Positions 2,572-38,005 are shown, counted from the whole stretch's first letter. The stretch: DNA of 44,639 nt, filler included, from Catajapyx aquilonaris (GCA_000934665.2; 2 parts of 2 records of this genome joined end to end with filler, not necessarily neighbours in it), one strand, 5' to 3'. The notes: generated from the letters alone by a model not told the origin. Made by a program: numbers and translations.

Positions 2572-4109
2572 TCACAGCATGCCAGCCAGTTTGTCCCTCA
2601 GGTAATCCTTGGCTGGTTCGTAATAGTCACGCCTAAGAGCCACCATTTCTGGCATCCTCCTGACTGCACTCAGCAGATCTGACTCTGATTCTAGCACCAC
2701 CACTAGAAGGCAGGAGAGGCTGAGGACCACAAATGCCAGTGCAGGTATGAAGACCCGTAGGACATTGAATCTCTTCTGCGATGGATTAGAAGAAGAGGAC
2801 ATTGGGGTGGGCGGTGCAGTTGAAGGAATGACCCCTGACCTAGAGGTTGCATGCACAGGGGTTTGTGTGGCACGAGTCAGTCCATACTGATGACCACCAG
2901 AATCTAACTGAGACTCAGATGATGAGTGCTTGTAGTAGTCCTGGTAATAGTAATCGTAGTTGGAAGGTCGGTGGGAGGGACCACCCATTGAAGGGTCGTA
3001 GCCACTTGCACCTTCTGCAACTGGAAATAAAATTAAAACGGAAAATTAGGGGGTCTTCACATGATAGCTCACAGTAACTTTTTTGTAACTACAAAAGATT
3101 TCTAGCCCTTGAGAGAATCATTCTCAAACTAATAAATTGTGTACAGAGTTTTTCGCCTCAAGTGACACCCATACTGAATGATGCTAAGAACACATCTAGA
3201 GAAAAATTAGAGTAATTTCCAACTTTGTTGAATTGCATGCTCTCCATGTTTAAAAATACTTGCATGTATCACAGAAAAATCAACCAAGATAACAATACAA
3301 GAAGTCAAGTATAAGAGACAAAGGATATGCAAAAAATACTCTTAATAATCCTAGGAAATCTTTCAAAATGTCTTTCTATGTAGCCTTGTAAACTCGCACA
3401 TATCACTTTCATATGTCAGTAAACTCACCAAGTTTCTCCAAGGAATTTAAAATGACAAACATAAGTGATACATCCTGCTGCAATTAGTACAGCTCCTATT
3501 CCATTCAAAATGACAATGCTTAACCCTGTACCGCGCATTGTGACTTGAGGGCAACAATTAATTTGCGCAGGCACTATAAGCTTCAACTTTGGTCCTGGAA
3601 ATCACAGTGTGGCTTGATGTCAGAGTTAGTTTGTCAGCTTCCGCTAGATGACAAGCAATGTCGAAAAATGACATGGTCAGGATATGGTATGAAGCGGAGA
3701 GAAGCCAAGGTCCTTGAAAATGGAGCAAAATTTGAATTTGCTGAAGCAGCAATTGTGTCTGGAGCTGATTAGATATAGGTGCAGAGTAGGGGAGACGGAG
3801 TGGCGCCACGGTAACGTGCGCGCCCACGGATGATAAGGTCCCGGGTTCGATCCCAACCCGGGGACACCCCCTTCATCTCGTGCAGAGTTCTGGGGTCGTC
3901 TCTGGCTTCGTCTCGGGTGGTATATCCACAGACTAAACCACCCGGGGGAGTTCACAAAACGACCAAGCACCGTTACTGCACTGCACTTGCACATCCCCTC
4001 CTGCCATCCTGCCCGTGGGCCCGGGCGCTTCGAATATGGCACCATGTATACTTCGTCGATTGAAATAAAGGTCCGTGCAAATACCCTCTGGGTGAGCACT
4101 AACCCAACA

Positions 4110-4163
<54 letters not shown>

Positions 4164-7100
4164 GGTGCAGATATTAAATATCCAATTACAAGTGTAAACT
4201 GCAAAGAGTAGCTTCTCGTTGCCATATGCGGCCATTCTAATTTTGCCAGCACAATTTCATCACAATTTTCTGGCAGCGCAGGCACAATATTGCTTGAGGT
4301 TTGAGTCCTAAGTCATTGTGCGCATTTTTATTCAAAAACGGTAACATGTACAGATATTACCATTACTACGTTTTTAAGGTCCGGCAATTACCCCCACCCC
4401 AAGCTGCACGTGACGGTGGAATGGTCGGGTTATGATCGCCTTTACTTTTCTGGCCCTCCTTGCGATATGGATGCCGTCTATATATCAGATCAAATTGTAA
4501 TTTCCGGACCGTCAAAACTTAGCACAGGTCATCTCTGCATGTGTTACCATTTTTGAATTAAAAAATACTCGCCATGACTTTTGACTCAATCCATGTAACT
4601 TCAAAGTCATTGGGTCAGAGATGACCAAAACAATAAAAACCATCCTTACGTCGCCTATGATGAGAAAAAGGTGTTCGAATTTTTCTTCTTCCCAAAATCC
4701 TACATGTGTGCAGTACAGGGTTAAAGTGATCACTGCCATCATCATTTGAGATGTGGATGTTGTACTATCAGTCCACCAAGAATTGTCGCAGCGGCAGCGC
4801 ACGAACTACAGTTACGAGCACTTTCGGGTGGAGAAGTCAATGGAGAAGTGCTCGTAGACTGTAGTTCGTGCGCTGCCGCTGCGACAATTCTTGGTGGACT
4901 GATAGCACCATATGCTTCATAATTTATCTCATAGCCAGACAAACAAAAATATCACATAGGCACAAGTCCTGTTGCCACCCAGAGGGGGTAGATGTGAGAG
5001 AGGAATTGTGTATCAGGATGTGCCTTTGCTTCTTCTCTCAGGTGTACTCAGAATCAGAAATACTGGTATCAACTGGATGTAGGAGTGCCTGCAACATTTC
5101 AACAAATGCGAGCTAAAATAAGAAACGTGGTACACGTTTTTTAAAAGTGTTACCTTTTCTTCTGTCCTGATAATTTTGATATGATTCAGAACAGCAGATT
5201 TCTAATACCTATGTAAACACGGCCAATGTGAAACTCTTCACAATGAACAGGACGACACCACAACAATGCATTTTTAGAGCGTAACAACACTACTGGTGCC
5301 AACAATGAGCAGCAGCTTTGGCAAAAACAGACAACATGCACACTTCATTTCTATTTGTCGCTCCCCCTCACAAATCTCACTACCCAATACTCTCAAAAAT
5401 TAATGCAAGAAGAATGTCATGGCCCATGATATGCCAATTCTAGAGGCTAGCAAATGGCATATTCCTGGACAGTTTTTGTCCAAATGACCATGACATTTGG
5501 GTAGTGAGGTGTGTGGCACCCTTTTCTTACCATCAGCTTCAACCTCTGGTGGGATGCTCTCTGCTCTGTCGAATATCTTGGCCCTGTGATCCCTGGTCCC
5601 ATCATCCTGCCTGCTACTCATCTCGTCTCCTACAGTCATAGTGCGGGTGGGCATCATCATGGCCCTCCGCATCACAGCTCCCCCATGCCTCTGATGCCGC
5701 AGCCTTGCACCCCCTCCCCCTCCCATATGCCATTCCATCTCCATGCTGCTTTCTGCTTCTGATTCGTTCATGGACATCCTAGCTTCTTCAGCTGAGTTTT
5801 ATTTGGGGCAGTTTTGTGTGTCGGTGAAGAGGTGGAGGGGGCATAAACAGCACATTTAACAACACGGACAGTGCATTAGTGGCATGCAACAATCTGGGAG
5901 GGGTAGATTTGCCAGCCACAGTGACATTGCCAATTTGCAGCATGGTTGAGTGGGTGTCGCAAAAGGATAGAAACTATTTCCCTTCTCCTCGAAACATGGT
6001 GTGATTTTTCACAACAGAAGGCCAATCATTCATAACAAGAATTTCTTAAAACACAGTAGTGTGAAGAGATCACATTAGTGTTGAGCCTGACACTCTCCTG
6101 TGACTTCAGTAGCCTGCAATGCCAACACCCTGTCATAATTTTTTCCAGTTTCATACTCATCATATTGTCCCAGTACACCTTCTTTGGACTGGGATGGGAT
6201 AAATGTATGATGGTAGTTCTGGACTGCCTGAAGTTTTGGCTTGACTATACTGTAAGAGCCCCGCTAATTTTTCAATTTGACTCAATGGCCCTTCCAGATA
6301 AATCCTGTAAAAGTCTACTTTAAAATATCATCAAATTAGCTGCCTGGTAATAATTACAATTGAATCTTTGTAGTAACCTTCCTTCCAAACAGCACCTTCT
6401 GATTCACACCATATTCCAGGGCAACCCACCCAACCAAGCATCAACAACAGCAGCTTTTTAAAAACACGTGGAACCTACACTGCAAAAATTGCACGATATT
6501 TGCCAACTAACTAACAATGGCACGAAATGACAGCTGGTGAGCTCACCTGCACTAGCGACAGACCTGCACCTATTGGTGGCAGCTCTCTCTGGATCCTCCA
6601 TGAGCGGCTCTAGCAGAGGAAGAGTGCTTTCAGGACAGTAAGGGGAGTTGAGAGGGATGTCTATCCCGTAGAGGATATCCTCATCGAAATGGCTGCTCTC
6701 GGGCAGAGGTACTGAGTGATTTGATCGAGGCAAGCTGTCATAACCTGGAAATGAGGAGATAATGTAGTTTACTGTGAACCTGAAGTACAGCATTATTCTC
6801 ATGAAACAATTTCCATTTGTGCATCATAAGTGCTATAATGTGGGATGCTACACAGCATCAAGGGAAACCAATTAGCAGAACTTAACTACTTCTGCAAACA
6901 TAAGTCATACCCCACAATTTGAGACTTCATTCCCTAGATTTACAACTCTTACAAGGATGATGTTAAATACCAGCACCATAACAAATTCCTAGTGCACCTC
7001 AGATATGTTCCAAGTGCCACCACAGGCATGCAAAGATTTAGAATTATCAAACAGCCTATTCCAAAATGGTCAACATAAAAATTTGATCCTTTCTTATCAA

Positions 7101-10100: not shown

Positions 10101-12137
10101 GAAAAAAAATAACCATGACAAATTGTTAAAGCTGAACTGGCAAGGAACCGGATCTTAAAACATTGCCCATCTATTTCAAGACAGCTTCTAACAGGCTTGA
10201 ATGATCCTTTCATAACCTGCCAGTGAGCTCAAGTAGAAACTGACCATCACATCCAATTGACTCCTTCGTTTAAGACAGCCAATGGCAATCACTTTTTCCG
10301 GTCAAGAAAAACTTCAAAGGGGATGAAACAGCTACACTCACCCTCTGTTTCCTGGCATCCACGTATCGTAGTCCAAAGTAATCCTTCTCAACCAGGTTCA
10401 ATTGCTTGCACACATACTCCAGCAGGAAATGCCCCTTGTGTTGGGTCTGTTAAAACAGTTAATTCCAATAATTATTATCTTCCTTCATGGCACAGGTATC
10501 ATGTCATAAAATTAAAGGTAAAAATCATACACAATCTAGGTTTTTTATATAAATTACCTCCTACGGTACTTGGGTGAACCAGCACTTTCTCAAGGACATA
10601 GCCATCTATTTCTGGGTCTTACCACTTTTCGATGAGAAAAAAATTACATAACAAATCTGGTGTGCACTACATCCTCTTCAGTACATCACAGTACCAGTAA
10701 TAACAACATGTGGCTCTGATAGGAAGCAGACAAGTTCAACCTTAACCTCTCAACATTATGCGCTGGTAATCTTCCCAAAATAAAAGCATCAGGTCAGACT
10801 TACTGACAAGTTAGCAGTAATATTACGTGCTCGCTTTCAGTGCAGATACCGTAACAAAAATTCCAACTAGATGTTACCTATATTATGCAATGCTCTGTCA
10901 AATAACAAAAGGGTTGGAAAAGAATGCCATGTTATGCAATACCTTCCAAGATCTAATTTCAGAACCGACATGTGAAACTGAGAAGGTACGTGGAGGTGGA
11001 TATGTGCGGAGGATATGAGCGGATTAAATGCCAGCTATCAAGCAGGTGTGACCATGTGTAAGACACAGATTGAGTCATTACCTCACATAATTTATGGCCG
11101 TACTCACAAGAGGAGCTCTGGATTTGTCAGAATTACCTCACCAGCACTACAAATGGTGAATGTCGTCACCATATATTGTTACACTGTACTCTTAATTATC
11201 CAGGTGCAGATTAGCCATGTTTTGGATTATCCGTGCATGCATCACCAAGAAACAAAATTTAAAATAAAAGTCGTAGTCCTTAAAAATGTCATAAGACTTT
11301 TTCTAGAAGACAAACTAAAAATCAATCGTATGTTTCATTATTTTGATTAAACCTTAGATAAAACAGCATGCACTCTGTACAACAGTTCATTACAAACCAA
11401 TGAATAGCTAATTTTTATGGTACCTAGGACCATTTTCCGATTATCCTGCGACACCAGTGCAGTCATTAGCCCGAATAATTGGGAGTACAGTGTATTCAGG
11501 TATGACTTCACTTACAGTGTGGCAATAACTGTTAACACTAATTTGAATGAAGTTCTCGCTTGGCAACTTTTCCCGGTGCGTTAGCGTGAAGGTAGTGATG
11601 CAACACTATTTGTCTTTAGAATCAATAGGAAACACATTGCTTGAAGGTCACTTAACTCATGAGACGTGACAGAACCGGACCCTAGTTCCTCGGCACATTC
11701 AATCGGTGGCATATTTCGCCCAATCAGCCTCATTTCTAAGCGCACCACAGCATAAACGTACGTGATTAACACATGTGCAGTATGACTAGTAATGTTGCTG
11801 TACGCATCACAATGAGCTTATTTGAAAATTAAATGCTGATCACACTGCAGGGCGTACGGAGTAAGAGAAGGAAAAGTTACACCCCTAGTCAGCTGAACTC
11901 TTTTTATTATATTCCAACAGGAAAAGCAGGGCATGACTTGCTTGTCTCATTGCTTGCAGGCACTACCATCTTCCCCACCCAATGAAGGATATTGGACTAG
12001 ACCCTGGAATTGTCCAGCGCATGACGTGTGTGTGTGTGTGTCCGTAGAGTAGAGCGAATAGAACGTACCTGGAAGTCGCACTGGACAACTTCTGTGTCGT
12101 CCAAGAGGCGAATGGTGCATTTGTACGTCTGGTTCAT
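2572..12137 (-). CDS. FRMD5: FERM domain-containing protein 5/3-like (FERM + FERM-adjacent + C-terminal transmembrane helix), 12 exons, ~663 aa
   Basis: Exons 12137-12069, 10446-10342, 10098-10056, 9990-9814, 9479-9268, 9013-8861, 8699-8685, 7890-7802, 7371-7151, 6744-6547, 5791-5531, 3020-2572; all GT-AG and phase-compatible, total 1992 nt. Band 4.1-family motifs [71 protein letters not shown]. The C-terminal hydrophobic helix followed by [11 protein letters not shown] resembles the FRMD3/FRMD5 tail. Confidence 0.88.
3524..4720. mobile_element. Non-autonomous piggyBac-like element (last FERM intron)
   Basis: TTAA at 3520-3523 and 4721-4724 flank imperfect TIRs CCCTGTACCGCGCA / TGTGCAGTACAGGG; no transposase ORF. 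Confidence 0.75.
3786..4159 (+). mobile_element. tRNA-derived SINE with (ATT)n tail, nested in the piggyBac-like element
   Basis: A-box-like TGGCGCCACGG (~3801), B-box GGTTCGATCCC (~3844), (ATT)n tail ~4109-4160, 12-bp TSD TATAGGTGCAGA at 3774-3785 and 4160-4171; second copy at 31324-31643. Confidence 0.85.
4765..4905. mobile_element. Short fold-back MITE
   Basis: Arms 4765-4823 and 4846-4905 are reverse complements except for a 1-nt indel; 22-nt loop; compatible with a TA TSD around TCAGTCC...GGACTGA. Confidence 0.75.
11182..11492. mobile_element. Tc1/mariner (pogo-like) MITE in FERM intron 1
   Basis: TA on both flanks; imperfect TIRs CACTGTACTCTTAATTAT / ATAATTGGGAGTACAGTG. Confidence 0.7.
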
Positions 12138-12420
12138 GGCTGCGTGCGAGAGAGGGAGAGAGAGAGAGAGAGAGAGGGGCTGGAGAGAGATCTGGCCGTG
12201 CACCGCCCGGCACCGCAAGGACCCGGCTTCCTCTTCTGCCCCTGTTCGTGTGAGGTGTAGGCAACAGAGGGAGGCGACGTTTGGTTGGGAGGCAGCCAGC
12301 AGACGACTCCCTCCTCCCCACCCACAGACGGACCCACTGCTTCTGCTCCACCCACACCCCTCCTCTTTCCCCTGCAGTCGAACGGATCCATCCAGATCGG
12401 GAAGGGTTCGGTCGACTCCG

Positions 12421-12473
12421 ACGGCCATTTCGGGGCACAGACGGCCATTTCGGGGCACAGACCGACATTTCGG
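12421..12473. repeat. 20-bp tandem repeat in the FERM 5' region
   Basis: ACGGCCATTTCGGGGCACAG twice exactly (12421-12460), then a degenerate third copy ACCGACATTTCGG. Confidence 0.85.
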
Positions 12474-12767
12474 AGCTGACCAGGCGGGATTATTCGAATA
12501 GGCGACAATGATGTCGGTAGGTGTCTAATTAGTCCTCCTAATTAATTGGCGACATGTGTCTAATTGGGGCCAAGTACTACTAATAGGATGAGTCCTGTCA
12601 GACGAGTGGAAGGGCCGATATTCCGCCAAGGGAGTCACCGGGCAATGAGGAGTCAAATGCAGTGAAGGTATGACCAGTGCACTTAGCCATAGAGGAAATT
12701 TTAATGTGAAATTAACTAACAGGCAGACGGAGGGCATCATGGGTCGTCGGATTACACTCCAGCAACA

Positions 12768-13820
12768 ATGAGTCAAGAGCAACGAGCTTCAAGCAATGTA
12801 AGTACCGCATATGAGAAGTGCTCCAACATCATATTCAGGTAGGCATAAACTTTTTAATGTATTTCGCATGTAAAAGGCAAAGCGACTTTTTGAGAAAGGG
12901 GGGGTTCTTATGTGCGAAAATAAACGAATGACGTTTTTACTTGAATGTGAGATATGCTTATATGCAGTCAAATGCAGGTAGGTGGCTTATTAATTTGTGG
13001 AGTAACTAAGCATATTAAAAAGGCATTATAATTATGCAGCAGGACAAGCCGGGACCCAGCAGAGCACCACCGCCACATCCAGTACTACTCAGGCACATGC
13101 AGACTGAACATGATCTCAGCAATTTTGTAAGGCTGAAAGAAATAATTTGTTGTGGTCCTGCTTACATGCGATGCACGTTGCATAATTATTTATTTATTAT
13201 TTATTTTATTTTTTATTACAGGAACCCCCGTCGCGGAAGAGGTCCAAGAATTACCAACTTCTTCGTTCTCCTAACGTTACTGTAAGTTACTTGCAACGGA
13301 AAAATAATTTCTCTAATTAATATTGATTTTTCTTACATTTTGGTATAATTAGATGAAAGAGCCACTTCTGCCGCATGTGAAGACGCCCAAAAATTACGTA
13401 AATATTCACTGTGACCATTACATGCATTAAAGATTTAAAGGCAAATTGCGCCTCTTGACTGAGACAGGTAATAACATCCGGTGTTATATTTTTATCCAGG
13501 GGCGAGAGGTAATGCCACCCAAGATAAAGCCAACTCCAAAGAGGAAGCTCAAAAATCTTTGGGTATGTGTACGGAAAAAAATACATATAGCCTTATAGAT
13601 TCTGATGTGAGTATGAATGTGACAATGTGCAGCAAGTATGGCTGTCAACTTGGAACTTGCGACATTAATTTTATCAGTACTATTCTCGGCTGATACCGAT
13701 ATCTGTGGTTCATATATGTGTAATAAATTGGTCTTTTTGTCCCCATGTGTACAGGAGGTGGATGAATCTGACAAGTTGCAGTATCGCCGTCGAGGATATT
13801 CTTCAAGGTTCATGGAGTAA
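12768..13820 (+). CDS. Small basic, proline-rich orphan protein, 6 exons, ~116 aa
   Basis: Exons 12768-12797, 13040-13126, 13222-13281, 13353-13397, 13500-13562, 13755-13820. All introns are GT-AG and phase 0 (donors GTAAGT, GTAAGG, GTAAGT, GTAAAT, GTATGT) and the frame is open to TAA. AATAAA at 13951-13956. No recognisable domain. Confidence 0.6.
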
Positions 13821-14634
13821 TTACGGCCGGAAGCAGCAGGTGCTCAAGGACCTTCGTTTTTAAAAATGCATTAATTTGCATTGCCAATGTTATGCATGAA
13901 GGAAAAGGAAGTAAGCCTCCCTTCGTCACTAGTAATTAACCACGTTGGTCAATAAAGCACTTTGTTGTTTACAGTGTGTACTTATTGTGACCCGAATAAT
14001 TATGGTCATATCATGAGTATGTATTTGAGAAATGCCTTTTGATTGATTGATGGTCGAGACGTAGAGTTCTCCACATTTTGGATAATCTCACTATCGCAGG
14101 CTGTGATAGCAGGCCAGCAGGGGTCAACACAACACCCCCCCGTACTCCCTTAGTACAACTATTTGGTACAACGTAAATGTATCAGAGCACCAGAATGTAA
14201 TACTGTAGGCCTACATGTGTGATCTGTGGTGGAAATGGTAGAGTCACTTCCCCTTGGTATTGTCTTTTGATTTGGTTTATCCGCCTGCTCCAGGCAGGCG
14301 ACAAGAAATTACATAAGACTCAGAGTGTACCTCTCCACGGAAATCTTTAGTAAAAGGCGAAAGATTTACACGAGGATTGAAGAGGAACCAGAGTATGAAA
14401 TTTGGCACCCAAAAGGTGCCCAGACATACCTGGACCTGGACATGCTCCAACCCCTCATCATCAGCAAATAATCATTGCAGAAATTTTAATCATGCACTAA
14501 TCGCAAATTCATTTATTTTTTATTCATCTACAATCATGTTTCTTCCCAGCTGTTATTTCGAAAGTTCGTAAATTTAAGTATGGAGGTGTAAACAATTGCA
14601 AACATGTTACATTACGAAAGGTTTGGAGTCCCCA

Positions 14635-14682
14635 CTACCAGATGGCGGGCCAGGCTTTGTGCTCCGGTCAGTAGGTGGCACT
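14635..14682 (+). promoter_or_regulatory. Pair of CTCF-like motifs upstream of spatacsin
   Basis: CTACCAGATGGCGG (14635-14648) and TCAGTAGGTGGCACT (14668-14682) resemble the CTCF core CCASYAGRKGGCRS; motif resemblance only. Confidence 0.3.
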
Positions 14683-14938
14683 GTGGCAGCCAATTCTGTA
14701 CCATAGATTTCTGCTCTAGTAGAGAGTCCGTAAGTGTAGGAAATAGTGCTACAATTAGCCACGTAGTGTCGCCCCATTCCTCTAATATTATATTTGTGAT
14801 TGATAACAGCGCCGACAAACGGATGATATGAAACAACGAAGTAGATTTGGCACGTGAACGTCTTGCATTTTCTAAAGTCTATGGTGATGGAATATCATGT
14901 GTCTGTTGATGGACTGATTGCCGCCTCTTTTTCCAGCG

Positions 14939-17900
14939 ATGGAAGCTGCTGGAGGGAGCGGGGACTCCAGGGATGCGGCCTGGCTGCTCTCCCAGGTCCA
15001 GGCTTCAGTAGGCCAGGAGGACATCGAGGCTGTTCAGGAACATTTGCAGCGGATACGTGAGGGTAAAGTAGCCAGAGCAAGAGCTTGCCAGAGGCATGTT
15101 TTAAAATTAATGTAACTTAATGGTTTGTCTCTGTGCAGATTTTTCAACTGATTGGACTGCGCTGTTAGCTGGACACAGCGATTCCCTGGACGATACGTCA
15201 GCTCTGGCCGTGGCCGCTCTTCGCTGTGTGCTGCAGGAAGCGAAACAGGGCAATTTAAATGCTGGTTTTTCAACCGAGTTACTGAGCAAGTCTGTCATAT
15301 TTTGCACCTCGCTTCTTCGAGTGCTTCACATAGTCCAGGACAAGAGGCCTCATACAGATCTTGCTCAGGACTTGGCTGTGGCTAAGATCAGGCATCGGTT
15401 GACCGCTGACTTTATATCAATTGCTTCTGAACTGAAGAGCTGTGGCAAGAAGCTCCACAACAGCAAAGACGAAGGGCACAATTCGCTGGCAATCTTACTG
15501 TCAGAGCCTCGGATTAAAGAGATATGGCAGCGCTGGTTAAGAATGAACATTGTAGAAGTTGTTAAAGAAGCTGTTGGAATGTCCCAAATGGCACTTTTGC
15601 ATAGCTTTCTGGTCTCGAAAGGCGATTGTGATTCTGAATCTGTTGCTTCAGAGGTGAATTCCATTGTCCACACTTGGGTAGAAGACATGGTGCGGATGAA
15701 CCAGATCGAGAGAGTCCATGAGGTGTATGAAAACATGGGGATAGAGCCATATGAACGATTAAGGCAAGAGATGCGGGACACGCAAGATGGAAGTGTTAGA
15801 CGAGTATTGGGGGATCACTTGCACAGCATGGGTAAACTTTCTGAGGATGAGCTAGAAGGCATGAAGATGATGGAGCGGATGCAAAGAATGTGTGGATATT
15901 TGCGAAGTGATGAGGAGGAGGAGGAGGAGGCAAAGCTGACCATGTTAACACTTCAAGATGTTTTGTGCTGGAGCAAGGAACACTGGAGGATGATTCTAGC
16001 AGAATTTGGTTTCTTGATGGAGGGTGAGGTTTTCTGTCAGAATTTTACAGAGGAAGATAAAAGAAAGTGGTCTCTAATTTAATGAAATAAGTTATAGCAT
16101 ACCGCTTGTGATGCTCTCATTGCAGATGTGGAGTTGCTTAGAGAGGTTCCAGCTGAAACAGCATGGGAATATCTGCTGGTCCATAATGAGATAATTCGAC
16201 TTGACGGATGGATAGAAGCACGTTTTGGCCCAGAATATCATGAATCAAATGCTTTTGATGCGGCTCTACATAAACTTGAGATCACCTCAGATATGATAGA
16301 TTCAGTTTTCGATGTGGACACATTGGATGTTACAAGGAATGCTGTTCTTTGTAATCTCTGTAGGTAAGATTCTTTCTTTGAAGTTGTGCATTACTTGCAT
16401 GTATTTTTGGCACAATATTAAACTCTAATGCAGTCAATTTCACATTTGAAAGAGGATATCATGTTTACCATTTCTGCAAAAGCAGATGAAAATTGAGGCT
16501 TACTCATGCTTGCACAGTTTTATGCACTGCTTTGCTTTATATTTTAGTTCTTAATCTTTAAAGTGTGTTGAAGTTTTGAATTTGTATCATTTCAGGCACT
16601 CTGTGTTCTGCTCCCGTGAGAGTCAGCATGTGAGCCTCATTTTGAGGCGACTTGTAAGCAGCTTTGACGTCACCCACGCACTCTCTGACAAGCTAGCAAT
16701 TCCTCCCGACCTTCATGACCGTTTGGTGGAATTCTATGTTGAAAATAACCTTCCAAAAGGTCTCTTGACTCATCTGGACCGCTTTCATAACCTTCCTGAC
16801 TCTTTATTGGAAAACGTGAAAGACAAGCAATGGTGGGTTCCACTTGTCCTGAATTTTTTTGCCTGGAAGCGAGGACATCACGATTCAAAGTCATTTGTCC
16901 GCCTGGTACGTCAAACAACCAAATCCTTGCTCGGACCTGAAACTAGTGAAGCAGATTACATGGAATCACATCCATTTGTGTCACTGGCACTTTCCATGGC
17001 CAAAGGTCAATCACCAAAAAACACCAAAATCCCAATTCTGTCCCGAGCAATATTTAGTTTGAACCCACAGCAACCACCATTGAGGATCTCAGTGTACGAT
17101 CTTCTTAAGGGCAAAAGTGCATTTGATGTCTCCAGAGTACTCAGGTGGCAGACTGCCGTGAGGAAGCCTGACAGCGTTGCACCAGAGCCACCTCACTTTG
17201 CATCCACTGCACTGGTTAAACAATATGGGCACAGAGAAGTTCTTGACTACATGTACTACTTGAAGCAAGGGAGGCCTAGTTATGCTGCTTCAAGGGCTAC
17301 CATTGACATAATTCAGAAGTACAAGAGTTTGCCTCGCCAAAGGTAAATATGGTTGTCTCTGGCTCTATTTCAGATGGAATCTCCCCTCGATTAATGCTGA
17401 AGTAGCCAAAAGCCACTTTTTACATGGAATTTTTATATTTTCAGTGTTAAAGAAGTGTGTCAAATGGCTCAAGGATTGGCAATGCAGCGCTATTATGACC
17501 ATGCCATTGCATCAGGTTGCATTTCTTTCCTGGAAATGATGGGCCAGAATTCACTGGCTGCTAGACTGAATGTACATGTTGCCAATCACATGTTGTCGTC
17601 AGGTGTGCCTCGAGATGAAATAGGTAGGCTGCACTAAAGTGGAAGTGTGGCATTTAATTACTACTTGGATATTTGATTAATAATTGCAATGGCTCATTCC
17701 AGATGGGCTTATGCGTGGCTTGGTTTTTAACCACTTGGACGCAGCTGCTGCCCTTCTCGACATGCTGGGACATACATTGACTGCACCAGAAGAGCTCACT
17801 TGTAGCACCTGCATTGAGTTTCTCCAAGTCATACACAAGTGGGGGCTGGCTGTCAGTTTTGCTCGACTCTATTCCCTCCCACTACCAGAACACCTGTTGA

Positions 17901-20900
17901 AATTTTTGGCGAAGAAGAACCAGTGGCTTGCACTTCTTTTGGTCCTGCACATATTCCAGTATCCAGTAGATCAGGTGAGAAATCATGCTGGATGGGCAAG
18001 TAATCATGTTTGCATTTGGTTGACTGGCCCACTTTCATCTGAGTGAACTGTGAGTTATTTTCGATGGTCCTTACCAGAGCTTTCGTTCTAGGCCTTTAAG
18101 GTTGTGAAGGAATTTTCTTCAAGTGAACTCCAGCAGCATTTTCACTATGCTTTCCTTCGTGTTCCTCCGCTTGCACAAGAAAGTGGGCTGATTGCACCAC
18201 CCAAGATGAAAACAAGGGACACCAGGCAGACACTGTACTCCAAAATTGGTGTCAAAGCAAAGGGAGATGTAAGTAGATGTGCTTTTATTGGCATCTCTCC
18301 TGCCCCCTGGACATGACCTATCGCAGTTGCCAATTATTTGTCTGCACAGTTCAGTAGTAATACTGTTATGCTTGTAACGACTGCTGTATAAGATCAAATT
18401 AGTTTGATGCGAATGTAAATTTTATTATTGACGATGTGCCATCAGGAGCAACTGCTTGTGAATCTTTAAAAATGCGTTTTTTTTTGCAGTTTTTATTTTG
18501 TAATATTGTCTTTTACCTCTTTGATGCAGGATTCTGGATCTGACGTCCCTAGTGAACTGGAATCTCGCTCACCTTCGAGTGCTGATAGTCCAAGTGATGA
18601 GTCACTTGAAGGGTCAGATATGCATGATGTCCATTACAGTGGGGGTGATTTCTACTCAGTTTTGTACTCATGCAACTTACTTCCGGAGCCTGGGAAGGCT
18701 CTTCTGGGCAATGCTGTATGCATGAAAAATCCAGTTTATGCAGTGATGGCCACTTTTTATGAGGTAATTAGCAGCTGAATGTCACTGGAACTGGCAAGCA
18801 CCACATTTTACTTCACAAATTTTAACAATGAATGATCTTCACTCAGGCTTGTTTACTTGTACAATACTCATTGATATTAATTTCCCTACTTTGGCAGAGC
18901 GTGACGGTCACATCTTGCTTCTGCACATGGTTGTACACATCATTGGTAGCTGAGGTTCAGGATAGTATTTCTTCTTCATACGAAGAAGCACTGAAGCACT
19001 ACTCATGGAGACCCGATGAGCTGGAGAGGCTGCTGAAGCAAGCCCTAATGAGTGGACATATTGCTACGATTGTAGATGGAATGCAGATATTTCTTACTGT
19101 GAGAACAATTAGGTTATGATGCTGTTTTAGTTATCTAAAACATGTAACACTTTCAGGACAGTCCGCTGTACTCATTAAGTTGCTTCTTGCTTGAATGCAT
19201 ATGGAAGCATGACTTTGATGCAGCAAAAGTTCACTTGAAGGCATTTCAAGCTGGTTGCCAGAATCTGAAGTTTATGGCAAGCTCATCAATTGAATCACAG
19301 CCTCTGCATGAACCCCACTGGGTAACATCAGTGTCTGTAAACCTCGTCCACTGCACATTATCGGAATGCTTGGTGTCATCATCACAGAAGCTTCATTTCC
19401 TGGACCTACTCTGTGAACTCTCATTCAACACTTTGCTGCCAGTTGAAGGTATTGCTTTTTTGTCTCTCAACTATCTTGTAAGTCGTTGACAACATTTTGT
19501 CCCTATTCATCCTTTTCGTGGTACTCTTTTGAAACATTTTGAAGTCAATATTATTTTGATGTTNTGATGTTTCAAGGCACATTGTAAGCAATGCTTGATT
19601 GGACATTTGTGGTAGAAGATTCTCATAAATTTTTAAATCTTGGCTGAGTGCAGAAGTGGTGCAACTAATTTTTCTCTTCTGTTTCTTGCAGCCCAAAGTG
19701 CAGATTGGTGTCACTTACGATCAATCCAGAGAATTCTGCTTGACTGCACCATCACTGTGGACTTTGAGTCACTCATATCCGGTGACTATGAATCTGAAGT
19801 AAATCGCATAGTGAGAGAACTTGTCTGGACAAAGTCATTTGCAACAGCCTTAGAACTGGCTACTCTAGCCCGGGTAGCCAAAGACTATATCTTGGTGGAG
19901 CAGATGAAGCTACGTTTTATTGATGAGAATGATCATCACCACCTCCAGACTGAGGACTCTCGAATAACTTTTTGGAGCGAGTGCCATAAGTTTGCAGAGG
20001 ATTCTGGATTGGCTCCAGATCAAGCAGTTTTGTTTTTCAAGGAACATGCTTCTTATGTGCACACCCAGAGAGAAAAGTTTCATGTACTACAGCTTGCGTG
20101 GAAGTGGATCAAGGTTGACCTACAAGGGTAGGTGCACTGAATTTTGACATATCAGCGATTCACAGATTGGAGCCAGAAATGCAAAGGTGTAGAAGAGTTG
20201 ACTGTACAGAATGACCCCACCCCGACTTCCATAAGTGGATTGTTCCACAATATTACGTAAAGGCTCAATTTACAACAGTTGTTGTGGACTGGCTGTATTG
20301 TACAGTAAAACTTCTATAAGTCGAATCTCCATGGGACTGGAAAAAAAACTTAGAGTTATAGAACATTCGAGTTAGAGAAGTTTGGCTTTTTTTTTGAGCA
20401 CATCACTCTATAAGGAAGCCTGCCTTTATATCCAGTGACAAAAGGTGTTCAAAACTTAAAAATAACTCACTATCTCACAATGTTCCTCATTGTTTTGTTG
20501 TAAAATAAATCTCCGATATGGACATTTGCCTACTCATCGATTCAAGGATTCAATTGTCACAATCGAGTCAAACACTTCTTTCGTTACGTCTGGTAGACGG
20601 AGATCAGGAAATTGAGCCTTTCTGTACATGTGGCCTACTCTCGACCCTTCGGCTGGGAAATGAGACAATTTTCCGTACTCGCCAACATGAACTTCGACTT
20701 AGGGAGACTGAAAATGCATTGATATCCCATCGTAAGGCCTTGCCTGCACTTCCAGTTATGGGGATCTTCGAGTTATAGAAATTCGTGTTAGGGAAGTCTA
20801 CTCCTATTATTTTACATTGTGACCAACCAAACTCATCACTTTCTTCGACTTATAGAGAACTTCAACTTAGGGAAGTTCGACTTATAGAAGTTTTACTGTA

Positions 20901-22251
20901 TATTAATTAGCAATTTTAACACACTGCAGTCACTTCATTATGCTTCATTAAAAGATGTTGCCGGGTGTTGCTATTAACCCTTCTGAAACTTTTTCATGGC
21001 AGTAGATTTTTTGTGTTCATACATATTATGTGGAACCAACATAAGCTCTGATTTGAATTGTTGAAAATTCACAATTTTTTTTTTTTTAAATCTGACTCCT
21101 GTCCTTGATGTGTGGCAGAGTTATGTACCATTGACACTGTACATTTCTAATAGCAAGTCAGTTTCTTCCTCATTTTAAAAAGCATTTATTGATACTGTTG
21201 TGATTTGACAGCTAACTGAGAAAATATTCAGCTTTTTATCCTCTTAAAATCTGAAATAATGATGCAATGACTAATGATCTGAAATGTTCACTGCAGAAGC
21301 AAAGAAGAGGATGCAGTGGAAGTGGACTTGTGGCGTTGCTTGCTGTGGGGAGAGATGGAGCAGAAATACGTTGGAGACTTGAAGATATTGCTTGGGGAGG
21401 GGGCTTTTCTCAAATCAGAAGTTGAAAAGGCTAGAGTAGCTGACATTTATCGCAAGACGCTTGATAATAAAGTGGAAGAAGAAGCACTGGAAAGAATAAT
21501 CGACTCCCTGCTCAAGTGTGGGAATGTTCTTACTGCCTGCAGGGTACAGCACATGTTTGGCCACCACAGCAGGGTATGGATTTTTATTCCTTGCATTAGC
21601 TTCACTGGGATAATTGAAACGTAACTTTTTTCTACATTTAAATTCGTATTGGAATGATGCTTTTTTCAGGAGGTGGAATTGATTCTTGGATGCATGTCAC
21701 TGGCTGAGGGCGAGATCCAAGTGGAAGAATTTTATCAGCGTCATCCGCATTTAAGCACTACTGGATCACTCTCAAGAGAGAGGAAATTTTCTGTGATTGG
21801 GACACGTAGTGCCCTGGCCATTGGTTGCAGAAGGATTCAGCGGAGCATTTCCATGTGTGAGACTTTCATAAGTCCTCGTCTTGAAAACAAGCGTGTTGTT
21901 GTTGCCTTAAGAGATGCTGTGGAGAGCCTTAACAGTGGGAATCTTTGTGGACAGAAGATACTGAACTGCTACAAGATAGGGGTCAGCTTGGGCATGGACT
22001 ATGAGGTGACAATTTTGAAGCGTTAAGTGTAACTTTTAGCTTCATTCCTTTTGATTATGAGAAGATATTACTCTTTTTGTAGGCTGTTGTCCGGTGCCTA
22101 GATCCATTTTCGCTTATGAGAAAAATCCTGAGGAATGAATCTTTGGACTCTCGTTATGATTTGGCACGTGGAATAGTAGTTTCAATGCTGATAAATCAGA
22201 GTGACCTGGCTGAATTCTTGTGTGGTGAGATTGTATCTGCTATCACCAAAG
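14939..22251 (+). CDS. SPG11: Spatacsin (SPG11), 3'-partial, 14 exons, ~1522 codons
   Basis: Exons 14939-15062, 15139-16023, 16126-16363, 16596-17342, 17445-17623, 17703-17974, 18092-18268, 18530-18763, 18898-19098, 19157-19448, 19692-20127, 21297-21573, 21670-22005, 22083-22251; GT-AG, phases consistent. PHFASTALVKQYGHREVLDYMYYLKQGRPSYA closely resembles a spatacsin-conserved block as I recall it. The C-terminal domain is absent because the gene runs into the gap; the start codon is tentative. Confidence 0.88.
20303..20898. mobile_element. Tc1/mariner (pogo/Tigger-like) MITE, copy 1
   Basis: TA TSD; TIR CAGTAAAACTTCTATAAGTCGAA at both ends; internal repeats of TTCGAGTTA(T/G)AG; colinear with 34903-35482. 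Confidence 0.88.
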
Positions 22252-22279
22252 GTACAGCTCTGTATTGCAATCGAGCACC

Positions 22280-22379
22280 NNNNNNNNNNNNNNNNNNNNN
22301 NNNNNNNNNNNNNNNNNNNNNNNTTAATTAATTAANNNNNNNNNNNNNNNNNNNNNNNNNNNNNNNNNNNNNNNNNNNN
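22280..22379. other. Artificial assembly spacer (contig join)
   Basis: 44 N + TTAATTAATTAA (22324-22335, stops in all six frames) + 44 N = 100 nt. Confidence 0.92.
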
Positions 22380-22929
22380 CCCCCCCCCCCTCCCCCCAAA
22401 ACGGTCAGGTGGTATATGGACGACCCCTTATTAGCCCTTTTGAGTATGGATAAGTCTGGTCGGTAAATAGATCTCAATCTATCGTACTCCAGAATAGCTG
22501 ACTCTGGAGCCTTGATGTTAGTAAAGGAGGCATTGATGAGATGCACTCCGTTGAGACTTGACCGCACGAGGAGACAGAGGAACCAATATCGATGAGTGCA
22601 TTAGTGAGACTCGGGCCTTGGCTCTTGTGTATGGTAATGGCATGCGCCACACAAATTGGGAATATTATTGTTCCCTGTACACATAGGCTCTATTGATGAC
22701 CTCGAATTTTGTATTTGTATTTGTTTGAAATGCAATGACTGCTTCAGTCAGATAGCTAGCGGTATGCAGGAGGGGGGAGGGGGGGAAGGGAGGGGGTGAG
22801 GAGATGAGAACGTGTGGAAGGCAGGAGGAGCACCAGCATAACTGGAATTTCCGTGGTAAAAAGTAATCCGTGGTAAAAATGCCGCATCTGGTAAAGCAGC
22901 AGCAGACTTCGTGAAAATAATTTTTTTGG

Positions 22930-23325: not shown

Positions 23326-23454
23326 TAATTATACCTTTTGACATTTGGAAGCACAAGGGTAATCTTGAGTTATATAGAAAATGCAATAGTATTACGTTAT
23401 CAAAACCAATCATAATGCTCTAAATCAGCACTGCAACTGTTCCTCTTCTTCCAG

Positions 23455-26400
23455 GGATAGAGAAGAAAGGCGACGTGCTATGGAGACGGGCTGCCCACCA
23501 CCACCTCCACCCCATGGGATAGGAGGAGGAATGATGGGTGGAAATAGATCACTTCCTCCTCCAGTGCCCCACCATCAGCGGTCAGGATCAACCTCCTCTG
23601 CTAACGGGGATGTGTCGCGGTCAGAGGACAGCAGCCTCACCTTGCCCTTGGGTGGAGCTGCTGCTTCAGATGATGACCATCCAAGTTATGAGGAAGAGGA
23701 GGAGGATGGTGAAGGAAGAGAAGTTGTGGGGGCCACTCCACCTGGGTCCACTCCAGAGGATGAAGAAGAAGGGGCAGGTGGTGATGGGAGCAGCAGGAGG
23801 GTGGTGGTGACAAAGGTGGGCTTGAGGGGTCGGTTGGAAGAGGCAGAAAGGGGAAGGGTCCTGGCCCAGCAAGAAGTGGAAGAGACTCATGGACGCCTCT
23901 CTCTTGTTGAGAAGAAGTATCATAAGGCAAAGAGGATCATTCGTGAGTTCCAACAAAGGGAGAGGGACTTCCTGCAGAGGGAGGAGTTCCACCTACAGCA
24001 GCTTCAAGAGAAGGATGTCGAGTACAATGCACTGGTCAAAAGCCTGAAGGACCGGGTCAGTATATGCTTTTTCTCATGAAATTCTATGAAACTGCCTGGT
24101 TATTCATACAGTAACTTATCCAATGGTATAATGCTGGGTTGAGTGTAAGCCAGGTTAGTTTTTGTTTGCATCCTAAAAGTGAACGTATTGTTCTTCTAAC
24201 TTGCGTGTCCTAAAGTTAATTTTTTGAGCTGTGTACTGTAACTATTACTATTTGTCAAGTATATGTCAATCCAAGTTGAAAAAGTTGTCATCTCATCTTC
24301 AGGTCATCCAACTGGAGCAAGAGCTGGCTGAGACCCAAAAGAAAGCTGGACTTCCAGTGCATCTCCCCATGGACTCCTCTCCATCATCAACTTCACCTTG
24401 CCTTCCCAAACAGCACCCAACTCACTTATACCAAAGCCAACAGCCTCAGTACCAGCAGGTGCAGAGAAGGGGGCTACAGACTCCTCCTCCTCCACCAGTA
24501 CCCCCTCTCCTGCTGCTTTCCAGCAGGCTGGAAGCAGACCTGTCAGACACTGAGATATCAGATGCCAGTCCTGAGGAAGCCGAGAAGCAAGCCACTGTGG
24601 AAAGGAAGCTGCCTCCAGGGTCTGCCACTGGAGGTGGGGGAGGAAGTGGTGGGGGCCAGGTGAAGGAGGAGCTGGATGAAGCAGTGCCTCCACATGAACT
24701 TCTGGATGTATCTGCATGTAGAGCCAAAGCAGAGCTGGCAGGGAAAGGTGGGCTGGCAGGGAGACAGCTGCCCAATCTGAAGAAGAGTGGGAGTGGAGGA
24801 GGGGGAAAGGGGGGCCACAGCTCCGAAGGTAGCAGTTCAGATCGTGATGATGATGAAGGTCAGCCGAATACATGCCGATATATAATGCGTCAGAGATAGA
24901 GAGGAATGGTGATTCTCGAAGTGATGTTGGGAGGACAGGTTCAATGTTATGCTGATGCCTCATATGCTAACTAGGAATTTGATTGCTTTTATTTTTAAAA
25001 CTCCTCTTTAGGCATTTGGTTCAGGAAGGGCAAGTCTTTGTGAATGCTGCTTTACTTGCTGGTAAAAGTCCAGCTCTATTTAATGCTTCTAATGGGTTAC
25101 AGGAAAAGTTTCTCTACTGATTGTTACTTTATCTCAGCATTGAACTTTCAGACCCACAAATGAACAGTTAAAACTTAAGGTTGCAATTACCATTGTCATG
25201 TGAGCCATATTTACTCTCCAATCAGCATAAGTATTGAAGCTGTCTCAAGTTTCCACATACTGTACGTACACTATGGCCTCTAAAACATTCCTCTCGTTTG
25301 TTGCAGCATTCCCTCAAGAATGGACTGGGTGTCTATAAAGTACAAGGCAGTCTTGATCTCAAAATTCAATTGCTTTCATAACCAAAGAACATAGATGCTA
25401 GTAAAATGTAATCATAAAGAGAACCCTCCAGGTTTAATAACCTCACTGGAATGTGACAGAAGTTTAAAAACAAGGGAGGTGCCCAAGTGGACTAATTCCA
25501 TCACTCGCCAGACTTGTGTTCCCCCGACTGTAAATGTCTTCTGGTGATCAAGGTGTAGTTGGTCACCACATGAAGATCCCTGAAATGACAAGATCTGGTT
25601 GCAGCAGTGTGCAGACCAACAACACAAGTCTATTGGGTTCCTGGAATTGAGGGGAGGGTGTATGTGTTTCAGTGTAACTACTGTATTTGCAACAATATAT
25701 TAGAATAAACCTGGAGAGTTTTCTTCTTAGCAGTGATACTTGTGGCTTTGGTTATGGAGTTATTGTAGTCATGAGATTAATGGCGGGTTTCACCAAGTAG
25801 GTTATATTATATTATAAATCCGAGTTTCTTTTCGGAAAATACTTGCGTTTGATTGTTGACAACAACCAAAAGTAAGGATTTTCCGAAAAGAAACTCGGAT
25901 TTATAATATAACCAACTTCGTGAAACCAGCCATAAGAACGCATGTGGTAACCCCCAGTCACTTTTTCTTACATGCTTGTGTGGCCAAAAAAATAAGTTCC
26001 ATAACAAAAATTTGATGCTCTTGCAAAGTATCGTGAGAACCACCATTTTTCGTTCCTTGGCTTATTAGGTTTATTATGTAGTTCTATGTTAAAATACATA
26101 AAACCGTCACTCTGTAATAGTTTGACACGTTTTAAAGCACTTGTTAGTAGTTACTGGTGCATTCTGTTGCAAACAAAAAAGAGCTGGCGCTTCTTCTAGA
26201 CCAATAATTCCACAGCAAGGAAAAGACTCCATTTTTATGGCCTGGAGAAATTAATGTTGGTTTGCAAAATAACTGTAATTATTCTTACCAATTTCAGACA
26301 TTAAGGATGAATGGGATAATGATGTGACTAATCATCATTATTCCATAAATTCTTTAATTCTGAGTTTTTACAATGCAATCTACTTGGATCTTTATGAATC

Positions 26401-29400
26401 CTGAAATTTAAAAAAAAGAAATGTCAAGTTGATAATTTTGAAGGTTAAGAAGAGAAACAAAAGAGAGATTAACTATACTTGTAATGGGAAAGCTCAGTGC
26501 AAGTAATTATCTAACAACTAAGCATGCTGTACTGAAGAATTAATGGTGAAGTACTGGTGGTGCAAAAGCCATGGCAGCAAAAGAGTGAATCGAAGCGATG
26601 ATTGAGATGCGATGGTCTACATGATGTCACTGGCACTCTTTCTAAACCGGTTGGAGGGAGGGGAAAATAAATGGAATTACCTTTTTAAATTATTTAGAAC
26701 CAGTGACTCGGACAGATCATGTGGGTGACTATGAAAATATGTTCAAGATGAAGGAAGGAGTTCAGGGGTGTTCTTGAAGTGCCTATAAACATCACTTTAT
26801 TCCTAACTTAGCATATTATTGACAAATATTGCCTTACTAGTGCACCCGTAGCCAAAATTGGGAAAAACCTGCAATGAGGAAGACAATGGGAATGAAAAAA
26901 TTGAATGAGAGGGCTCGCGGAGTAACAACTAAGAAATAGTGTGTAGCTTGTCGTAAGACGGGGTTGAAAAATTTAGTGGCATTGAATCAATCAACATACT
27001 GTATACTTCTTGAATCGGAAATGAGAAACGTTTTCATAAAACCTCGCGATATACAACATTCTGTGTAAACACTCAGTTGTTGGAGAGCAATGTTCCGTGT
27101 TGAGCAGTAGGAGTAGTGAACACTTGACCTGACTTTGATTGCGAAACCGGGACAGTGCCACATACAGCTGGCCATGTGAGAAGACAGGTTCATCCAGGTA
27201 AATGCCCACGTGCTCAAAATTCTGGCCCTGCGACTAGTTGATCGTCGTGGCACAGGCTGGGATGACAAGAAACTGGCGGCGTTTGAGAACAAACGTCATA
27301 TTGATGTCACTGGGAGCTAAAGTAATTCGGGGCAAGAAAACGACATGACAGCGATTGCATTCCGACACTATTTCGGCAGCAATGAAATTAGCGTGGAGCC
27401 CAGTGATCAATAATCGACTGCCGTTGCCGAGTCCTTGTTTGGGATTTCTTAGCAACATCACCACGACTCCTTGTTTGAGAAACAACTTATGCGACGGCAT
27501 GCCTGAAGGAGTAAGCTCATGCAAAAACTCTGGGGCGGGGTGTGAGGATGTAAGGCATTGACCACTGACAGAAATGAAGCGACCCTACTCTCCACTGTGC
27601 AGTGAGCCACTGACCCACCCACCAAGCAACCCCCCCCCCCCCNTTGGGTGGAATTTTCGTCTCACTGCTCACGTCTCATTCATCAGTTCAATTCGCTCTT
27701 TTTCTGCCACAGCTTTTGCACCACCAGTACTTCATCATCAATGTCTGGCACTGTACCATATGCTTTAGGTCACCTGTCTGTGCCATGACACTAGTTTGGA
27801 CATCATACTATGGGTTTGGCAAATAGGCAGTACATGATGCCTTAACTTGCAGGCTTCAACCAATGGTCATGCAGAACACCATCTGAAGATGAGTGCCTAC
27901 ATGTAGGTGGCAGAAGGGGATCAGAAGGGTCTGCCACACTAGAGGATCCTCCATCCTCCTTGAGGAACACTGCCTCAGGATTGGTAATGCCTACCAACAA
28001 CCATCACCATCACCACCCACACCATACATCCCAGCAGCAACAGGTACACCCACAACATCCTCACCAGCGTGGCAATGTCCAGCAAGGTGTAGGAATGGGA
28101 GGAGTGAGTCGCACCCCGTCTCTTCCCCATCCCCATCCACCCTTGCAGCATCCCTACTCTCTCCCACATGTTCACCCGCAACACCCACACCCACAACCAC
28201 AACCTCGTGCACCATACCTCTCAAGCTTTGCGGACCCACGGATCCCAACTACAGGTGCTACTAGAAGCGCAGCACCAGTTGTGGTAGCAGCAAGACAGCG
28301 ACTCCCCCCAGCACAACAGTCTTTAGCAGAGCAGCTCAAGAGCGTTTTGGCTGAAAGAGAGAAGCAGGGAGGAAACAACCCCAACAGTCTTGGAGTTCCA
28401 ACAACTAGAGGTGGACATGGCTCCTCCCCTGTTAAAGGAGATGCATCTGGTGGCACAAGTCCATCTGCTTCTCTCTCTGGTTGCTCCTCCCCAGGGGTTG
28501 GAGGATCACTGGAAGTGTTGGGAGGTGGAGTAGGGACGGTTGTGCCCTCAGACAGAGGGGTGGTACCGCCTGAGTTCTCCTGTTCATCGTCAGCATCGTC
28601 AAGTGCAAGAGGGAGCAGGGAGGAATTGGCAGGGGGAGGAGGGAGTGGAACAGCAGCCTCTTCCCCAGGTGGAAACAACCCTGGTTTTCCCCCAGGTGGT
28701 GGGAATGGAGGTGGAGAGAGGAAGAGTCACCTATGGCAGAGCAGGCCTGTTCATGAGTGGCCCCGAGAGCAGGTCAGTGGCTGACTGCAGATGATTTATT
28801 TTTAACTTTGTGATTTTATTTTTTCATGCATAGTTGTAGATGTGTATATGGGTGATTCTCCAAAACCTTACCAATACCATGCCCCGGCATAATAACTCAA
28901 AAATGGCTTGACTGAGAGAGTTGATATTTTAAACATTTGTAGAAGCAGTTGACACCTAGCCATCCCCATGAAAACAAAGAAAAATATTAAATTAAGTTTT
29001 ACTGCAAAAAATGTCTAAGGGCCTAAAATCACTATTCTTGGCATGTCCCGATCTCATTTTAAAGCATGCTATATTTTCTTACAATTTTATCATTAGCATT
29101 AGACAAGTTTCAATACTATAATTAAATTGTACGTAGTTGAAGGTATAAAACAACATTTTTAAAACGATTTATTCATTTGACATGACCTTGCTGCATCACT
29201 CCAAAGTGTGTCCCGAGTTTTCATGTTACTCTCCTGGATCAGGATATTATTTTAAAATTTGCAGTGAAACAAAGGGATTTTTTACTCAGTTATTTGGCAA
29301 CACTGCTTCTCCATGACACCTTGATTTAACTACAGATTGATGTGCAAGGGGTACGTCTTCTAGTGGGTTAAAAAAATTAAGGCATTTTAAATTCAGTTAT

Positions 29401-36075: not shown

Positions 36076-36972
36076 CAAACACATGCATCTGGCCATCTCG
36101 TTTGACGGATACAATGAACCCTCTGGTGACATCATTTACTGCAGTGCTTTTTTTGCCAGGTGTATCATTGGACAGTTGCTCCAGCAATGAGACAGAATGT
36201 CTAAATGTTCCCTTGAATATACAATGTCATTTCCTGGTGTTTATTTTACCATCACCCTGATACATTATTACTGCACTTCAAAAGTGACATGTGGCACATA
36301 CAGTACACACATACAGTAATCTGGACTATAAGTAGGTACAATATACTTGCCCAACCTCAGTGTAGTTCGCCCACCCCCAAAAAGTGGGAGTGGTGGGGGT
36401 AATGAACAAAATGTGATACAATATCTCCATTAAGATAATCTGGACATTAGAATGGATAATTATGAATTGTAACATTGGAGTTAGGAGGACACGAAAGTTT
36501 AAGTTGATTTGACAGTTAGCAACTGAAATAAATATGATTACACCTTGGACAGTGTTTCCGTGGGATCTGGTAAATATTGATGTCACTACGTTTGTATGTT
36601 TACTTAGTAGGATATTAATTTCAAAAATGAACCTGAGGGGCCACACAAATCCGAAGACAGCATTAAAATTAATTACAAAAAATCAAACACGGAATTTTAA
36701 AATGTTTATCACGGCTTGCAGATGCTGATATAATCGTCTGATATAATTGACAACATGCGTCAAAAAGTTTTGATTCATTTGTGCCTGTATCTTTTGTACC
36801 ATTAATTCCACTTTTTCTCAATTTGTCTGAAATGTCACTTACAACATTATTCGGGGCAGCCCTTCATTTAGTGCTCATGATTCCCCTTTTATCTCCAAAG
36901 AAGTCTGGGTAATTTAAGGTGAAAATATCGCCATGGATTGTAACAGTAGGATCACATTGAAACATTCAGGTA

Positions 36973-37713: not shown

Positions 37714-38005
37714 TTCATTTGAAATACACGACTCGGTGTTGACACATACAAAGTCATTTGCACAAGTTATGCCTGATTGGGGATAAAGTTCCTTTCTGGT
37801 TGTGACAGGTCCTTCTGGCATGACCTCATTACCATCTGACATGGTCACATCTGAAAATAATGTTTATAATATATTATGTATTAGAACAAGACCAGACATA
37901 ACCATCATAATTCCAAATTGCAACCTTCATTTTTTACTACTCAAGTTGCTAAATGGTATTTACATGTGAAGCACCCCCTTCTCAGGGTTCTGAGCAACAC
38001 TCTGA

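Follow-up and report, generated by a model that had tools for sequence, protein, structure and literature searches.

We analyzed a 44,639-nt stretch of DNA (filler included) from Catajapyx aquilonaris, in which two records of the genome, perhaps not adjacent in it, have been joined; this whole stretch is called the window below. At 12768-13820 on the plus strand, six exons of 30, 87, 60, 45, 63 and 66 nt, every length a multiple of 3, can be joined through five GT-AG introns of 242, 95, 71, 102 and 192 nt. Each junction falls between codons, so that all introns are phase 0, and the joined exons form a 351-nt open reading frame (ORF) of 116 residues closed by TAA. All five donors match GTAAGT at five or more of six positions (Table 1), and the nearest in-frame stop 5′ of the start codon is at 12717. 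The chain had been proposed as a small gene in a preliminary description of this DNA, and its exon structure was reproduced here to the base. The proposal that an ORF track does not show the unit also held, as the stop-to-stop ORF list contains at this locus just an 88-residue frame over exon 2 and an unrelated 72-residue frame; the six-exon unit is therefore invisible in any ORF track. The AATAAA that had been placed 3′ of the ORF is present, and the naming of the region as the FRMD5-SPG11 interval was confirmed by protein alignments for both flanking genes and, for FRMD5, by domains as well. The candidate has its own slot between FRMD5 and the spatacsin gene (SPG11), and a search for repeats found no second copy of the locus within 11800-14400.

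Statistical tests of the exon chain

Splice signals and codon usage were scored with models drawn from the window itself, namely position weight matrices (PWMs) from 23 introns of three other genes and a codon model of 2669 codons set against the introns of those genes. The codon log-odds of the joined exons is +37.1 bits in frame versus -17.4 and -13.5 bits in the other two frames, and it is positive in frame for each of the six exons. Chunks of 115 codons from real coding sequence (CDS) score 28.8 ± 11.1 bits (n = 21). Stop-free decoy chains made of pieces of matching length score 5.3 ± 9.1 bits, and the value of the candidate is attained by 0.055% of 20000 such chains; for stop-free decoys matched in GC the figures are 16.9 ± 6.6 bits and 0.09% of 2250. 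Exons and introns also differ in base composition, with 48.7% and 33.3% GC, respectively, next to 45.3% and 35.9% in the spatacsin gene. When the exon/intron mask was slid over the window, this contrast was attained at 3 of 5763 offsets, two of which lie no more than 6 nt from the true position.

Open chains can be constructed through almost any DNA, here and elsewhere, once permissive GT and AG sites are allowed. An open chain alone is therefore no evidence, and we tested a specific pattern together with features that had not entered the selection of the chain. The pattern was an ATG-to-stop frame with phase-0 introns only, donors matching GTAAGT at at least 5/6 positions, YAG acceptors, at least five introns of 50-400 nt, and a CDS of at least 300 nt. 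It was found in one of 1000 dinucleotide shuffles of 12601-14000 and, among 224 natural 1.4-kb tiles covering both strands, solely in the three that overlap this locus. Donors of this quality are dense on the plus strand of the region (11 versus a window mean of 4.9 per 1.4 kb; at least 11 in 6 of 248 tile counts), and the donor PWM scores of the chain (5.6-8.6) lie inside the range of the training introns (2.5-9.7). Two other approaches were dropped. The longest open chain was abandoned as a statistic because permissive sites yield longer alternative chains in the same region, and a splice model trained on itself by iterated chain-finding over-split long exons.

We also computed a composite score, the sum of donor and acceptor PWM scores and codon log-odds minus 10 bits per intron. 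The chain as originally described scores 51.2; the best chain in the region, which agrees with it in the start codon and all four internal exons, scores 55.0. Neither value was attained in 400 dinucleotide shuffles (maximum 45.0) or in 400 segment-wise shuffles that preserve composition (maximum 45.3), and the minus strand of the candidate region reaches only 28.9. Over the whole window, 19 loci remain at a composite score of at least 45 after collapsing; judged from where they lie, 13 correspond to evident coding exons in the correct orientation, four are antisense to coding or GC-rich 5′ regions, and the other two are the candidate and a region at 36966-38228 (-). An ORF-blind segmentation, which uses splice PWMs and exon/intron composition only, exactly recovered the introns at 13127-13221, 13282-13352 (at the lowest penalty) and 13398-13499; on its own training gene, the same procedure recovered just 10 of 16 introns.

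Transcript ends, neighbouring genes and the rest of the window

The AATAAA lies 131 nt past the stop codon and is the sole AATAAA or ATTAAA between the stop and 14300 (Table 1). For a point chosen at random, the probability that such a signal and a GU-rich element occur within 200 nt is about 0.056. Intron 5 contains another AATAAA, at 13722 (+), likewise followed by a GU-rich element, and its use could produce a shorter isoform ending after exon 5. On the 5′ side, the TGA of a short upstream ORF (uORF) overlaps the main ATG as ATGA, an arrangement typical of reinitiation or leaky-scanning control. An intron in the leader is speculative and is listed as such in Table 1. Patterns for TATA, Inr, DRE, Ohler-1-type, E-box and CCAAT elements found no match on the plus strand of 12200-12800, and a TCT-type pattern matched once, at 12363; these promoter results weigh little for or against a gene. 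Between FRMD5 exon 1 and the candidate, the GC-rich stretch holds a 20-nt unit in three tandem copies (12420-12479) and, shortly after it, two copies of a motif with GTGTCTAATT and several TAATTA-like cores (12512-12565); both may be regulatory elements.

Upstream of the candidate, FRMD5 lies on the minus strand, recognized by FERM_M and FERM_C matches and by the fact that most named matches are FERM domain-containing protein 5. The two genes are arranged head-to-head, and their start codons are 631 nt apart across the GC-rich stretch. Downstream, a U5 small nuclear RNA (snRNA) gene stands tail-to-tail with the candidate; it is separated from the poly(A) site of the candidate by about 300 nt and precedes the spatacsin gene. 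Two exons of the latter align in collinear order with the human protein, one to residues 1122-1224 (E 2.4e-9) and the other to residues 1645-1762 (E 0.0058), and a Pfam search of 12 spatacsin exon frames gave no significant match. The exon with the start codon opens at a strong acceptor (14936/14937), so an upstream exon is needed. A good candidate for this leader exon ends at a GTAAGT donor at 14730, which would leave an in-frame stop four codons before the ATG, and in-frame stops precede the ATG whether the leader is spliced or unspliced. By our estimate only about 555 codons lie ahead of the stretch aligned to human residues 1122-1224; the N-terminal part is either much shorter than in the human protein or too divergent to see.

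Table 1. Positions of the candidate exons, of associated transcript features and of neighbouring genes in the window
Feature	Position	Strand	Details
FRMD5 first coding exon	12069-12137	-	aligns to residues 6-32 of tick FRMD5, E 4e-12
Short 5′-leader intron (speculative)	12668-12726	+	AAG/GTATGA ... CTAACAG/GCAG; donor 7.1, acceptor 3.1; picked by ORF-blind segmentation at penalties 10 and 14
Upstream ORF	12739-12771	+	10 codons; ATG context ATCATGG (strong); TGA overlaps main start
Exon 1	12768-12797	+	start codon context AACAATGA; donor GTAAGT at 12798, PWM 8.6, the best donor in 12600-14000
Exon 2	13040-13126	+	29 residues; CAG acceptor 4.7, tandem CAGCAG (NAGNAG-type); donor GTAAGG 5.6; codon log-likelihood ratio +8.8 bits
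Exon 3	13222-13281	+	T-rich CAG acceptor 10.2, the best of the region; donor GTAAGT 6.5
Exon 4	13353-13397	+	weak TAG acceptor 1.6; donor GTAAAT 7.9
Exon 5	13500-13562	+	CAG acceptor 7.2; donor GTATGT 8.1
Exon 6	13755-13820	+	63 nt plus TAA, runs on into the 3′ untranslated region; weak CAG acceptor 3.7; codon log-likelihood ratio +7.4 bits
3′ untranslated region	13821-13980	+	AATAAA at 13951-13956, CA about 16 nt further, then a GTGTGT-rich element
U5 snRNA gene	14281-14396	-	Rfam RF00020, 83 bits (gathering score 40); full-length, covering model positions 1-117 of 117; loop I sequence conserved
Spatacsin (SPG11)-like gene	14939-22290	+	ORF apparently starts at ATG 14939; runs into masked N at 22280-22379

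Elsewhere in the window, the region at 36966-38228 (-) contains a unit of about 360-380 nt in three copies (36969-37713, 74-86% identity) and exon-like pieces with near-identical T-rich CAG acceptors. When joined, these pieces read as an open chain that scores 60.4 on the composite scale and encodes two similar modules, each about 43 residues long; the region could represent a further unannotated gene or an artefact of the repeats. A fragment resembling a Helitron-type (Pif1-like) helicase lies at 27234-27584 (-), with a match to the Pif1 2B domain (E 2.7e-13), and a second such fragment, judged by eye only, at 22474-22689 (-). Three further genes were seen at 39033-41402 (-), 43101-44627 (-) and 23390-32168 (+): one with a THAP domain (E 3.3e-16), one ionotropic-receptor-like (Lig_chan, E 2.2e-8) and one for a low-complexity protein ending in a SAM domain. 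In the ORF list, frames at 3837-4211 (+) and 31335-31559 (+) have a similar peptide stretch in common, suggestive of two copies, within the window, of a dispersed repeat or a transposon fragment.

The predicted product and searches for relatives

The predicted product of 116 residues has a mass of 13.7 kDa, an isoelectric point (pI) of 10.3 and a grand average of hydropathy (GRAVY) of -1.38. Its commonest residues are proline (16), arginine (12), lysine (12) and serine (11), and it contains no cysteine. Because neither a signal peptide nor a hydrophobic segment or N-terminus was seen in it, the protein should be intracellular and intrinsically disordered. The disorder that had been proposed for it fits the basic, proline-rich and hydrophilic composition. 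The short motifs that had been listed (SPN, TPK twice, KRKL and RKRSK) are all present; the nuclear location read from these three- to five-residue motifs is conjecture. So is a role as substrate of a cyclin-dependent kinase (CDK) or as a germline chromatin protein, since motifs of this size are expected in any sequence rich in lysine, arginine, proline and serine, and no family match accompanies them. Of the three S/T-P sites, just one (a TP) carries a basic residue, arginine, at +3, and no hydrophobic residue follows KRKL.

A duplication origin of the middle exons had been suggested from a loose pattern in their peptides. In a shuffle test of peptide similarity, exon 3 versus exon 4 gave p = 0.0125 and exon 4 versus exon 5 gave p = 0.0415, and the other 13 of the 15 comparisons gave p of at least 0.21. 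These two values are uncorrected and, being drawn from 15 comparisons, become non-significant after correction, which leaves the signal for duplication marginal. Skipping of single exons in frame is arithmetically possible, as all lengths are multiples of 3, but its actual occurrence found no support.

For protein searches the queries were unbroken stretches of the window and, for the candidate, exon 2 with its intron-coded flanks. A word-index search of proteins of 75-2000 residues with this query gave no match. When 1.84 billion representatives were searched exhaustively with the 88-residue frame that spans exon 2, two matches came up, both of which we rejected. One lies wholly inside the intron-coded part, and the other extends from the last eight residues of exon 2 across the intron-coded part; each subject has internal repeats (one is an Ig-repeat protein, the other a triple repeat), so the summed scores are inflated and we judged the matches spurious. 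Pfam searches with exons 2, 3, 5 and 6 at E up to 10 gave no match. As a positive control, the FRMD5 exon matched 35 proteins of the database, which does include arthropod proteomes; the best of these matches are 73-75% identical over the exon. The protein collection thus holds no close relative of the species, and the blank search with exon 2 says little. The 29 residues of a short, fast-evolving, disordered protein would be expected to escape detection, and the status of the candidate as an orphan appears neither supported nor refuted.

RNA families were sought as well. Rfam at E up to 5 over 12200-14700 placed no small nucleolar RNA (snoRNA) or other RNA family in the candidate introns, a motif scan of the five introns gave 0 C/D and 0 H/ACA candidates, and a search for transfer RNA genes found none. 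A snoRNA host gene of the usual kind was therefore rejected as an explanation of the locus.

Interpretation and comparison with known systems

We put the probability that the locus is a real, independent, spliced small protein-coding gene, with a basic, proline-rich and disordered product, at about 0.6, on the strength of the signals and statistics given above. Its transcript would probably start in the GC-rich region shared head-to-head with FRMD5, would be spliced at the five introns, and would probably receive its poly(A) tail some 20 nt beyond the AATAAA at 13951. To translate the main ORF, ribosomes would need to get past the 10-codon uORF by leaky scanning or reinitiation. It is conceivable, though doubtful, that charge and short linear motifs mediate the action of the product, which might, for instance, bind nucleic acid or acidic partners in the nucleus and be regulated by phosphorylation. 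We consider very unlikely a more elaborate scheme in which a lineage-specific arthropod gene was born by divergent transcription from the FRMD5 promoter, grew by tandem duplication of a proline/lysine module of about 15-20 codons into phase-0 mini-exons, and yields a family of disordered microproteins by combinatorial in-frame skipping. If true, this scheme would make the locus an intracellular, short-intron counterpart of the micro-exon genes (MEGs) of schistosomes.

Several observations weigh against a small coding gene at this locus. Only two of its acceptors are strong, and the other three are weak (4.7, 1.6 and 3.7, versus 3.3-15.0 in the training introns), that of exon 4 falling below the training minimum. 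The splice and codon models are small and were derived by a crude chain-finder of our own, and the composite score yields false positives antisense to real genes. The ORF-blind segmentation returned exactly three of the five introns at the lowest penalty, one at penalty 14 and none at 18 or 22, and at introns 1 and 5 it selects different splice sites. Of 20 internal exons in the neighbouring genes, 19 are longer than those of the candidate (45-87 nt), and intron phases there are spread 8/8/7. The candidate is therefore unusual in architecture for this genome, and its restriction to phase-0 introns may in part be a product of searching for chains by eye. Finally, the likely leader holds several upstream ATGs, and the uORF that overlaps the start codon has its own ATG in a strong context.

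These upstream ATGs and the overlapping uORF would also be at home in an RNA that is spliced and real but non-coding, such as a divergent promoter-upstream transcript of FRMD5 or a regulatory long non-coding RNA, or in one whose ORF gives no functional product, for example because short uORFs are translated instead. The distance of 631 nt from the FRMD5 start codon in head-to-head orientation fits such an RNA, and divergent transcription at bidirectional promoters is described in PMC4697840 as a source of many antisense transcripts that mostly lack coding potential. The blank results of the homologue search (exon 2 with flanks) and of Pfam on the exons searched point the same way. We nevertheless regard this alternative as unlikely. 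The codon usage is frame-specific, reaches the level of real CDS and survives GC matching, and the ORF fills all four internal exons with lengths that are multiples of 3, which is true of 6 of 20 internal exons in the neighbouring genes. The introns, moreover, are empty of snoRNAs, of Rfam families and of C/D or H/ACA candidates.

It is rather improbable that the exons belong to a larger or older unit, be it alternative 5′ leader exons of spatacsin (with the ORF as a long uORF), a gene fragment copied by, for example, a Helitron, or a pseudogene. Spatacsin does require an exon upstream of its start-codon acceptor and here has only some 555 codons before the aligned part, Helitron-type helicase fragments occur in the window, and a greedy chain-finder can link the candidate to downstream exons. 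Against this, exon 6 contains a stop codon with a canonical poly(A) site beyond it, the U5 snRNA gene sits between the two genes on the opposite strand, and spatacsin has a plausible leader exon of its own at the 14730 donor. Joining exon 5 straight to 14937 is out of frame with spatacsin, and the repeat search gave no second copy of the locus. Chance assembly of an open chain, out of GT and AG sites that happen to occur in non-functional intergenic DNA, is highly unlikely. The ease with which permissive sites give open chains, the three weak acceptors and a multiple-testing burden of about 64 independent 1.4-kb strand-tiles in the window speak for it; set against them are the pattern (p ~0.001 per tile) and the composite score (0 of 800 shuffles), codon usage (p ~0.001) and GC contrast (p ~0.0005), which are largely independent of the former two tests, and a poly(A) signal in the right place.

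If real, the small coding gene would have been missed by ORF-based and homology-based annotation alike; no exon exceeds 29 codons and no known domain is present. It would exemplify genes for small disordered proteins hidden in short arthropod intergenic intervals. What the locus offers on present evidence is a good candidate for annotation, not a mechanistic discovery.

Many very short exons are also found in snoRNA host genes and other spliced non-coding RNAs, and the tiny exons and introns of 70-250 nt of the candidate resemble them. It differs from these hosts in that its introns carry no snoRNA or Rfam family and an uninterrupted ORF, with codons biased as in coding sequence, runs through its exons. 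Among proteins, H1 tails and sperm basic proteins are lysine/proline-rich chromatin proteins with S/T-P-K-K-type motifs. The predicted product shares with them a high content of lysine, arginine, proline and serine, TPK motifs and a pI above 10, a likeness of composition only; unlike H1, it has no globular H1 domain and no Pfam match on the exons searched.

The candidate also resembles the MEGs of Schistosoma in its architecture, with a CDS made of short exons (30-87 nt) whose lengths are multiples of 3, which would let any internal exon be skipped in frame, and a small, disordered product. MEG proteins, according to PMC10526429, are secreted and encoded by exons of 3-81 bp separated by introns of up to 5 kb. 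The candidate, from an arthropod, has introns of 71-242 nt and a hydrophilic product without a signal peptide, so the likeness is one of architecture only; the secreted product and long introns of MEGs are both absent from it.

Another setting is that of taxonomically restricted (orphan or de novo) small genes beside existing promoters, discussed in PMC4697840, where Wu & Sharp 2013 and Almada et al. 2013 are cited. That paper reports no enrichment of de novo genes at bidirectional promoters (20% versus 29.81%). Unlike very young genes, the candidate has a codon usage on a par with the old genes of the window. Like the orphan and de novo genes treated in PMC4697840, it would give a short, disordered and basic product without a recognizable homologue or domain in the exon searches, has strong U1-type 5′ splice sites downstream of its presumed start, and is short, multi-exon and head-to-head with an older gene; if real, it would be a convenient system in which to ask whether genes of this kind originate next to promoters that already exist.

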